A stretch of 64,000 nt of DNA from Eledone cirrhosa (Eukaryota): positions 62,001 to 126,000 of the forward strand of contig CAXHJY010000964.1 of the NCBI GenBank assembly GCA_964016885.1, given 5' to 3'. The first letter of the stretch is position 1. Each line of letters starts with the position of its first letter. The notes beneath the pieces were generated by a model. It worked only from the letters and a program-made list of their open reading frames with translations, had not been told where the DNA came from and searched no databases. Of this stretch, positions 47,921 to 50,234 are shown piece by piece. The position numbers were made by a program, and so were the translations under genes.

Positions 47921-50234
47921 TTGGAATAAATGCTCTGAAATAGCGATATATATGTGAATATAGACATAGAATATTCGAAAATATTCTGTATGTTTATAAT
48001 AAACATTTTGAAGACCTAATCGCTATAGAATAGAATACGTCACGTATTACAATTAGATTCTCGATAAAAGCAAGGGAAGTAAGTCTACGCGTTTCATTCT
48101 TGTTAGAATTCATCAGGACTACATATCCAGTGCTTTTATCGAGAATGACACAGCTAGAGACTTATAGAATACTTAGCTGTGTACAGGAACTGGTTTGAAA
48201 GAGCGGTTGCCGGTCCGGCAGAAATTAGAAATTGGAATAAATGCTCTGAAATAGCGATATATATGTGAATATAGACATAGAATATTCGAAAATATTCTGT
48301 ATGTTTATAATAAACATTTTGAAGACCTAATCGCTATAGAATAGAATACGTCACGTATTACAATTAGATTCTCGATAAAAGCAAGGGAAGTAAGTCTACG
48401 CGTTTCATTCTTGTTAGAATTCATCAGGACTACATATCCAGTGCTTTTATCGAGAATGACACAGCTAGAGACTTATAGAATACTTAGCTGTGTACAGGAA
48501 CTGGTTTGAAAGAGCGGTTGCCGGTCCGGCAGAAATTAGAAATTGGAATAAATGCTCTGAAATAGCGATATATATGTGAATATAGACATAGAATATTCGA
48601 AAATATTCTGTATGTTTATAATAAACATTTTGAAGACCTAATCGCTATAGAATAGAATACGTCACGTATTACAATTAGATTCTCGATAAAAGCAAGGGAA
48701 GTAAGTCTACGCGTTTCATTCTTGTTAGAATTCATCAGGACTACATATCCAGTGCTTTTATCGAGAATGACACAGCTAGAGACTTATAGAATACTTAGCT
48801 GTGTACAGGAACTGGTTTGAAAGAGCGGTTGCCGGTCCGGCAGAAATTAGAAATTGGAATAAATGCTCTGAAATAGCGATATATATGTGAATATAGACAT
48901 AGAATATTCGAAAATATTCTGTATGTTTATAATAAACATTTTGAAGACCTAATCGCTATAGAATAGAATACGTCACGTATTACAATTAGATTCTCGATAA
49001 AAGCAAGGGAAGTAAGTCTACGCGTTTCATTCTTGTTAGAATTCATCAGGACTACATATCCAGTGCTTTTATCGAGAATGACACAGCTAGAGACTTATAG
49101 AATACTTAGCTGTGTACAGGAACTGGTTTGAAAGAGCGGTTGCCGGTCCGGCAGAAATTAGAAATTGGAATAAATGCTCTGAAATAGCGATATATATGTG
49201 AATATAGACATAGAATATTCGAAAATATTCTGTATGTTTATAATAAACATTTTGAAGACCTAATCGCTATAGAATAGAATACGTCACGTATTACAATTAG
49301 ATTCTCGATAAAAGCAAGGGAAGTAAGTCTACGCGTTTCATTCTTGTTAGAATTCATCAGGACTACATATCCAGTGCTTTTATCGAGAATGACACAGCTA
49401 GAGACTTATAGAATACTTAGCTGTGTACAGGAACTGGTTTGAAAGAGCGGTTGCCGGTCCGGCAGAAATTAGAAATTGGAATAAATGCTCTGAAATAGCG
49501 ATATATATGTGAATATAGACATAGAATATTCGAAAATATTCTGTATGTTTATAATAAACATTTTGAAGACCTAATCGCTATAGAATAGAATACGTCACGT
49601 ATTACAATTAGATTCTCGATAAAAGCAAGGGAAGTAAGTCTACGCGTTTCATTCTTGTTAGAATTCATCAGGACTACATATCCAGTGCTTTTATCGAGAA
49701 TGACACAGCTAGAGACTTATAGAATACTTAGCTGTGTACAGGAACTGGTTTGAAAGAGCGGTTGCCGGTCCGGCAGAAATTAGAAATTGGAATAAATGCT
49801 CTGAAATAGCGATATATATGTGAATATAGACATAGAATATTCGAAAATATTCTGTATGTTTATAATAAACATTTTGAAGACCTAATCGCTATAGAATAGA
49901 ATACGTCACGTATTACAATTAGATTCTCGATAAAAGCAAGGGAAGTAAGTCTACGCGTTTCATTCTTGTTAGAATTCATCAGGACTACATATCCAGTGCT
50001 TTTATCGAGAATGACACAGCTAGAGACTTATAGAATACTTAGCTGTGTACAGGAACTGGTTTGAAAGAGCGGTTGCCGGTCCGGCAGAAATTAGAAATTG
50101 GAATAAATGCTCTGAAATAGCGATATATATGTGAATATAGACATAGAATATTCGAAAATATTCTGTATGTTTATAATAAACATTTTGAAGACCTAATCGC
50201 TATAGAATAGAATACGTCACGTATTACAATTAGA
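47921..50234 (-). mobile_element. Tandem array of ~7.4 x 311-bp hammerhead-containing monomers (second retrozyme-like family)
   Basis: Units start at 47921, 48232, 48543 ... 50098; I detect no differences between copies; no ORF of 60 aa or more; one hammerhead per full unit. Confidence 0.93.
48082..48120 (-). ncRNA. Type I minimal hammerhead ribozyme (first of 7 copies)
   Basis: Sense: agtc CTGATGA attct aaca agaat GAAA cgcg TA^gact. All core nucleotides present, palindromic stem III, enclosed by a 16-bp perfect stem (48057-48072/48131-48146). Confidence 0.93.

Follow-up and report, generated by a model that had tools for sequence, protein, structure and literature searches.

The 311-bp array in the window, by which we mean the whole 64,000-nucleotide stretch of Eledone cirrhosa DNA analyzed here, very probably works like an element mobilized by a Penelope-like element (PLE); and the sequence supports its identification as a single and very young insertion from a dispersed, mobile non-LTR retrozyme family. 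Our best reading of that family, which we consider probable, is that of a retrozyme copied by a Penelope reverse transcriptase (RT) whose usual template would be a monomer that is likely circular. An exact 311-bp periodicity runs through 2,315 bp with 0 mismatches, as in the original prediction of 7.4 identical units, which had placed the start one base late (47921 instead of 47920). The unit is non-coding and of low G+C content (107/311 nucleotides, 34%), its longest ATG-initiated open reading frames being of 39 and 30 amino acids. Those properties, together with the size of 311 bp, which falls in the ~150-450 bp range of such units, the type I hammerhead in each unit, and the thousands of dispersed copies, bear out the non-LTR retrozyme proposed at the outset, the lack of other genomic copies, which would have spoken against that proposal, being thus discarded.

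The 5' junction of the array occurs once in the genome (1 match), and its haplotype is common to three arrays located on chromosome contigs (L031, L040, and L078). Because the units are identical, the 5' junction is unique, and a single founder per array is the pattern throughout the family, the earlier notion of a recent single-event multimer likewise appears sound. The 311-type arrays were the most uniform of the sampled classes, with 3 differences in 58 units (0.017%) versus 0.072% in the majority class, which uniformity suggests that they are the youngest. The two flanks of the array share at most 68 bp, located away from the junction and no more than is shared by other pairs of tracts, the target being the microsatellite; and no target-site duplication, which in non-LTR retrozymes exceeds 4 bp when it occurs, was detectable in those (TA)n flanks. 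The locus is a less common, single-armed insertion and otherwise an ordinary member of the family. Three features described below were absent from the original prediction: the palindromic nature of stem III, with its predicted failure to form in a monomer; the fixed priming site that the left end shares with the whole family; and the two-armed structure of most sister insertions. The features of the window are collected in Table 1.

Table 1. Retrozyme and Penelope-like features of the window; unit positions are numbered from the first base after the predicted cut.
Feature	Position	Strand	Remarks
Retrozyme array, single arm	47920..50234	-	7.44 identical 311-bp units; 7 hammerheads; 6 complete cleavage-to-cleavage monomers
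Predicted 311-nt monomer	48086..48396	-	Unit position 1 = 48396, position 311 = 48086
First type I hammerhead core	48082..48120	-	Stem I 48117-48120/48082-48085; CUGAUGA 48110-48116; AACA-looped stem II; stem III, a palindrome, 48087-48092
Ribozyme domain	48057..48146	-	Closed by perfect 16-bp helix 48057-48072/48131-48146
3' insertion end (end A), unit position 166	47920	-	Joins AT tract directly; junction at 1,049 genome places
(AT)4 inside unit, positions 131-140	47946..47955	-	End B of inverted arm in sister insertions; not an end here
5'-truncated end, unit position 29	50234..50237	-	Base of 16-bp helix plus ~3 filler bases; no inverted arm
Left target tract, G-interrupted (TA)n	45421..47919	.	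2.5 kb
Right target tract, G-interrupted (TA)n	50238..53217	.	3.0 kb
Second retrozyme, 474-bp unit, ~19 copies	24604..34320	-	Inverted arm 33596-34320 on plus; in common with 311 unit: hammerhead core only
Penelope-like element, separate from array	53218..60394	+	Inverted 5'-truncated arm ~53218-54830; pLTR hammerheads 55795 and 60199
PLE open frame	55935-59897	+	1,320 codons; 1,309 amino acids from Met at 55968; RT-like motif, CX4CxxC linker, GIY-YIG-like end

Seven minus-strand motifs of the form CUGAUGA-stem II-GAAA were found, at 48116 and then every 311 bp to 49982, all seven full repeats carrying the minimal hammerhead that had been proposed for the units. The conserved core elements of a type I hammerhead (CUGANGA, GAAA, and UH) are in place, with an Rfam score below threshold: a scan of the window gave no match at the gathering score, the best match within the unit being Hammerhead_HH9 (17.8 bits, E 0.15; cut-off, 52). 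According to the standard hammerhead numbering, the scissile bond would lie between plus-strand positions 48086 and 48085, in agreement with the cut predicted beforehand, and the six hairpin-arm pairs and the 16-bp helix specified at that time are all exact reverse complements. In the circular ensemble, 14 of the 16 pairs of that helix had probabilities of at least 0.97, and helices I and II were free to form, with pairing probabilities of 0.76-0.99 for stem I and 0.84-0.93 for stem II. The viroid-like density of structure attributed to the unit held in one respect, since the folding of two unit rotations gave z values of -5.0 and -4.9 and none of the 100 shuffles of either rotation reached its stability; but in the circular minimum-free-energy structure of the monomer only 59% of the bases were paired and the shape was branched and not rod-like. 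The opposite (plus) strand, moreover, was the more stable (-79.8 versus -67.2 kcal/mol), which result means that the density of structure alone does not choose the strand.

Stem III, consisting of A-U and C-G pairs around GC in a 6-mer palindrome, had a pairing probability of 0.0 in the monomer and either is limited to 2 bp or forms between two ribozymes as a palindrome, whose self-duplex amounts to -7.5 kcal/mol. Ribozymes with a palindromic helix III are described as active when dimeric and silent within monomeric circles (PMC4209133), and our folding likewise predicts a dimer-type ribozyme, inactive when alone in the monomer. The constrained pairing of a dimer through stem III costs 4.6 kcal/mol, which cost, along with the absence of stem III from the monomer, is a point in favor of templates that remain uncleaved, as considered below. 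At position 10.1-11.1, where canonical ribozymes typically carry a G-C pair (PMC4209133), the window array has A-U and 55 of 77 arrays have U-U. In the axolotl elements HHR_Amex1 and HHR_Amex2 and in newt satellite repeats, whose units measure ~330-350 nt, a weak palindromic helix III is predicted to act as a dimer, as in the 311 family (PMC7229834); and HHR_Amex2, as far as a description permits the comparison, also resembles the 310/311 majority haplotype in the U-U at the base of helix II, from which elements the window subtype differs by its A-U at 10.1-11.1.

The 311 unit is predicted to undergo self-cleavage and would give rise to a circular monomer RNA. The difference between units of 310 and 311 nt, located at unit position 3, is a subtype shared among arrays; and both forms keep stem I intact, so that a ligation scar at the cut site was rejected as its explanation. 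The 311-type junction motif has 1,394 exact matches genome-wide. Among four sequencing runs, one (X1) gave 609 records, and each of the other three (X4, X5, and X6) one 340-nt contig (310 nt plus 30 of overlap), a length as compatible with a tandem repeat as with a circle; these runs carry no weight in our argument.

In the 3.0-Gb genome we counted 3,924 exact 31-nt cores and 18,129 degenerate ones, the reversed-pattern controls giving 0, along with 1,049 exact matches to the junction pattern of end A and 1,353 to that of end B. Twelve loci were chosen on the ribozyme core alone and 80 more by an end (67 on A and 13 on B), in which latter loci the chosen end is fixed by the selection, the partner end not being so. 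Ten of the 12 core-chosen loci were two-armed, and all 12 had outer ends at 129-140 and/or 155-171. Over the 93 loci that include the window array, the arms were minus-plus in 77, minus-plus-plus in 1, single according to the parser in 15, and plus-minus in none; thus 78 of the 92 sister loci had two head-to-head arms and 0 of the 92 a tail-to-tail arrangement, and among the 15 parser-single loci there were 3 in which a second arm, though very short, was present and 2 that stopped at N gaps. For 56 of the 76 A ends in the jointly listed range, an opposite-strand B end in head-to-head orientation lay within 20 kb, where chance would give ~0.005 for each; one of those 76 loci, of 15.6 kb, was left out of the arm analysis.

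The outer ends of the family fall at two fixed unit positions, ~166 (155-171) and 131-140 (129-140), situated 26-35 nt apart in the unit and joined to (AT)n, and 157 of 169 of them continue into at least 10 AT-like bases. The marks of a PLE-mobilized element, namely two fixed internal 3' ends ~30-40 nt apart and AT-rich targets, are accordingly present, and the inverted 5'-truncated copy is found in 78 of the 92 sister loci, though absent from the window array. After leaving out 10 loci with broken or complex walks, the inversion junctions of the clean two-armed loci were distinct in 69 of 69, most with 0-6 nt of overlap or a short filler; both arms exceeded one unit in 56 of those 69, their lengths being correlated (rho 0.35, p 0.003), and arms ran up to 27 units. 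Inner ends coincided with the cleavage site in 3 of 152 cases, versus 3.9 expected; this lack of enrichment does not by itself separate circles from uncleaved multimers. Unit positions 14-64 were over-represented among the inner ends (41 versus 25 expected), which excess derives in part from short arms and among arms of more than one unit was not significant (p 0.18). As separate observations, positions 740-960 of locus L080 pass from a 311-family arm through an AT run into a sequence resembling the 474-bp unit, possibly a nested retrozyme insertion; and L125 (G000:C2:56922562-56922594) contains one hammerhead-like motif, whose palindromic stem III is the same but whose stem II differs.

This geometry makes a Penelope-type enzyme the well-supported class for the 311 family. 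The PLE enzyme has been reported to initiate reverse transcription internally at two sites and to cut both strands of an AT-rich target (PMC11167929); PLEs have been described as leaving inverted 5'-truncated copies, with a 30-40 bp tail and a bias toward (TA)n (PMC8557442); and circular PLE templates have been proposed (PMC4209133). With those EN+ PLEs (PMC11167929, PMC8557442) the 311 family shares the two internal starts ~30 nt apart, the AT-rich or (TA)n targets, the structure of tandem plus inverted 5'-truncated copies, and a hammerhead, which in the PLEs resides in the pLTR. The family differs from them in being without an open reading frame, in having arms of up to 27 units, and in using start sites with a short AT microhomology to the target, whereas for the anole enzyme in vitro homology at the start site was not needed (PMC11167929).

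The question of the template we approached through the haplotypes, counted on full units only (657 units from 82 of the 93 loci, with 70 arrays of at least three units). Per-base differences amounted to 0.06% within arrays versus 1.1% between them. The 70 arrays held 32 haplotypes, a random pair matching with a probability of 0.077, and the two arms agreed in haplotype in 53 of 58 arrays, while in 3 of the 5 that differed the discrepancy rests on a single unit per arm. Seventeen private variants in 15 of the 70 arrays fill every full unit (up to 22/22), and do so across both arms in 14 arrays, private being understood as among the 92 sampled loci, all on one contig, of more than 1,000. The presence of such variants in all units implies either a one-unit founder or a later homogenization, which latter process is less simple because it must cross the inversion in very young arrays; each array would therefore seem to descend from a one-unit founder, for which a monomer template is the simplest reading.

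If, as one alternative, the same Penelope-type enzyme and start sites were at work but the usual template were a transcript, linear or multi-unit and left uncleaved, from an already uniform array, circles would be at most occasional founders. This alternative, which we judge unlikely, though less so than those that follow, gains from the commonest haplotype being common to 17 of the 70 arrays, from the stem III requirements stated above, and from the anole enzyme having used mostly uncleaved RNA in vitro, unprocessed RNA being the dominant substrate there (PMC11167929). Opposed to it are the private variants, which in 14 arrays occupy all the units of the two arms, and the unit-private changes, which are nearly all singletons; in addition, the twin priming of a linear template predicts an enrichment of A-arm inner ends near the B start, where we found 10 of 76 versus 6.4 expected (p 0.14).

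Uncleaved templates are also favored by two mosaic arrays. In L086 (G000:C1:136719197-136726212), both arms have one haplotype in their two outermost ribozyme-bearing units and another in the inner units, in a mirror-symmetric switch; the units are in phase and the junction is genome-unique, on which grounds a nested insertion or donor copying was rejected at that locus. In L063, in turn, 277G is absent only from the outer four units of one arm, as a block. Both arrays fit a mixed multimer template or a template switch better than a single monomer circle. Moreover, variants recurring at the unit level in L053, L054, and L116 indicate that some DNA-level exchange takes place within long arrays. 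Taken together, the mosaics and the recurrent variants suggest that the templates of some arrays were mixed or multimeric, or that template switching or DNA exchange occurred in them.

The same switches in L086 and L063 could be invoked for an RT that copied cleaved linear monomers, leaping each time it reached a 5' end to the 3' end of another molecule or of the same one, which scheme would produce tandem units without ligation. We consider this possibility very improbable: no unit position is avoided by the inner ends, which show no excess at the cleavage site (3/152); of the 114 unit-level changes found in 638 units, only 5 are situated 5 nt or less from the cut, roughly as many as expected; and a mixed pool of monomers would mix haplotypes, whereas 53 of 58 arrays are uniform across their arms.

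The variants also bear on the strand and on the ribozyme. Read on the ribozyme strand, the array-wide variants comprised 11 A>G versus 4 U>C (p 0.028), the corresponding unit-private numbers being 9 versus 13, which skew may reflect editing or a selection for pairing, in either instance on RNA of the ribozyme strand. Eleven of 18 shared variants fell within the 46-nt ribozyme domain (p 9e-6). The 14 core bases, for their part, carried 0 of 36 array-wide variants, even though 11 of these lay in the ribozyme domain (P 0.018, post hoc, and with 12 of the loci having been chosen for an intact core), and 6 of 114 unit-private ones. An ordinary DNA satellite, or an amplification through DNA circles, with an incidental ribozyme-like motif and homogenized by unequal exchange, would account for the exchange visible within some arrays, and yet we hold it to be slightly less probable still than the jumping between monomers, in view of that strand bias and that sparing of the catalytic core, the fixed strand-specific outer ends at more than 1,000 loci, the exclusively head-to-head geometry, the unique inner junctions, and the existence of a Penelope-type family with the same geometry. 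That the perfect identity of the units were an artefact of assembly or polishing is hardly credible, for although the window belongs to a small contig (146 kb) with abundant microsatellites, the same haplotype is carried by L031, L040, and L078 on chromosome contigs, differences between units persist in other arrays, and the 5' junction has no second occurrence in the genome.

Under our preferred reading of rolling reverse transcription from a monomer circle, then, the tandem units would be transcribed on the minus strand, and two ribozymes would pair through the palindromic stem III so as to cut out monomers, which products would be ligated into circles where the lone ribozyme is predicted to be inactive. 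A Penelope-type endonuclease/RT would next cut both strands of (TA)n DNA, and each DNA end would prime internally on the RNA, at position 166 and at the AU-rich 131-140, respectively; the enzyme would copy one circular monomer RNA for several rounds, and the two rolling cDNAs would be joined by microhomology. At the window array, only the position-166 cDNA would have been kept, after 7.4 rounds, with a stop at the base of the 16-bp helix and a joining to the other target end.

The window itself contains a young PLE with an intact frame, which we infer to be of the Neptune/Nematis type from its linker motif only. Pfam gave no family for its open frame, and a PDB search with that frame only a weak match to a GIY-YIG endonuclease (E 0.17). 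The 131 genome matches to its RT region that were scored were, without exception, 99-100% identical and free of stops. Neighboring RT matches were minus-plus in 19 instances and plus-minus in 0, which is the arm geometry of the 311 family, and 16 same-strand neighbors stood 4.27-4.46 kb apart, this PLE family thus forming 4.3-kb tandem multimers in head-to-head arms. The two ends of the window PLE lie ~60 nt apart, as in the 474-bp retrozyme, versus 26-35 nt in the 311 family, and no similarity was found between the 311 unit and the pLTR of this PLE, the only one compared; for those two reasons, a specific partner of the 311 family was not found, and, given the shared spacing, the window PLE would be a better candidate helper for the 474-bp retrozyme than for the 311 family. 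The search for a helper PLE among the neighbors of 95 loci gave no informative one, and a genome pattern search for a related ribozyme 1 match.

A more diverged two-armed fragment of the same PLE family occupies 36527-38111. The (TA)n tracts of the window (21554-24603, 34321-36527, 38111-40182, 45421-47919, 50238-53217, and 60394-63337) and that of L043 (3182-7345) have their G interruptions on the plus strand; the six in the window, each of 2-3 kb, contain 223-361 G and 0-31 C regardless of the orientation of the inserted elements, and this polarity extends through the next 9 kb. It looks as though one polarized (TA)n tract had been targeted repeatedly. Of the remaining elements, the plus-strand sequence at ~41400-44930 is presumably a LINE, RTE-like by its motifs, whose coding sequence includes an endonuclease and an RT-like part, and the minus-strand one at 63420-63998, which ends at a TA tract and for which Pfam gave nothing, we take to be the C-terminal part of a restriction-like-endonuclease retrotransposon of the R4/Dong kind.

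Metazoan non-LTR retrozymes, for which cleavage and circles have been shown and a PLE-driven production of tandem cDNA through rolling reverse transcription of the circRNA has been hypothesized (Cervera and de la Pena 2020, PMC7229834), resemble the 311 family in their low-GC tandem units of 170-400 nt with a type I hammerhead each and a self-paired fold, in their thousands of genomic motifs, and in their coexistence with PLEs. The fixed priming ends, the two-armed insertions, and the one-founder arrays are what the 311 family, known from genome sequence, contributes in turn to systems where cleavage and circRNA were demonstrated; the main text of that article makes no mention of inverted or head-to-head copies or of a microsatellite. 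A recent preprint argues from pLTR homology that retrozymes are non-autonomous PLE derivatives, favors a local expansion by unequal crossover, and reports that, of 9 Xenopus retrozyme dimers, 8 failed to cleave in vitro, a result that speaks against our reading (Li, Clavereau, and Pollet 2026, bioRxiv 10.64898/2026.07.22.740005). The co-occurrence with PLEs and the proposed use of the PLE machinery are common to that study and ours, but the 311 family is without pLTR homology to the one PLE compared, and its arrays look, by their structure, as if born at full length; the text of the preprint contains no mention of orientation, head-to arms, tail, or priming. Literature listings and the beginnings of abstracts held no prior report of two-armed retrozyme insertions, on which matter the supplements of both works may bear.

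The return of retrozymes to the genome through rolling reverse transcription by PLEs is, in the portions of the literature consulted, a proposal and not a demonstration, to which the 311 family now adds exact start sites, a target, an arm geometry, and a founder signature, thus opening that proposal to direct biochemical test. The value of these data lies in the family rather than in the single-armed locus of the window, and the family bears as well on the reason why Penelope-like elements form tandem-plus-inverted insertions. In a broader sense, to which we would give an even chance, the arrays may directly record a Penelope-type RT that started from the two ends of a DNA break and ran round one RNA circle produced by the ribozyme; for each new array, the resulting bottleneck of one molecule would select for an intact ribozyme and fix RNA-level changes, and the 4.3-kb autonomous element of the window may use the same circular route.
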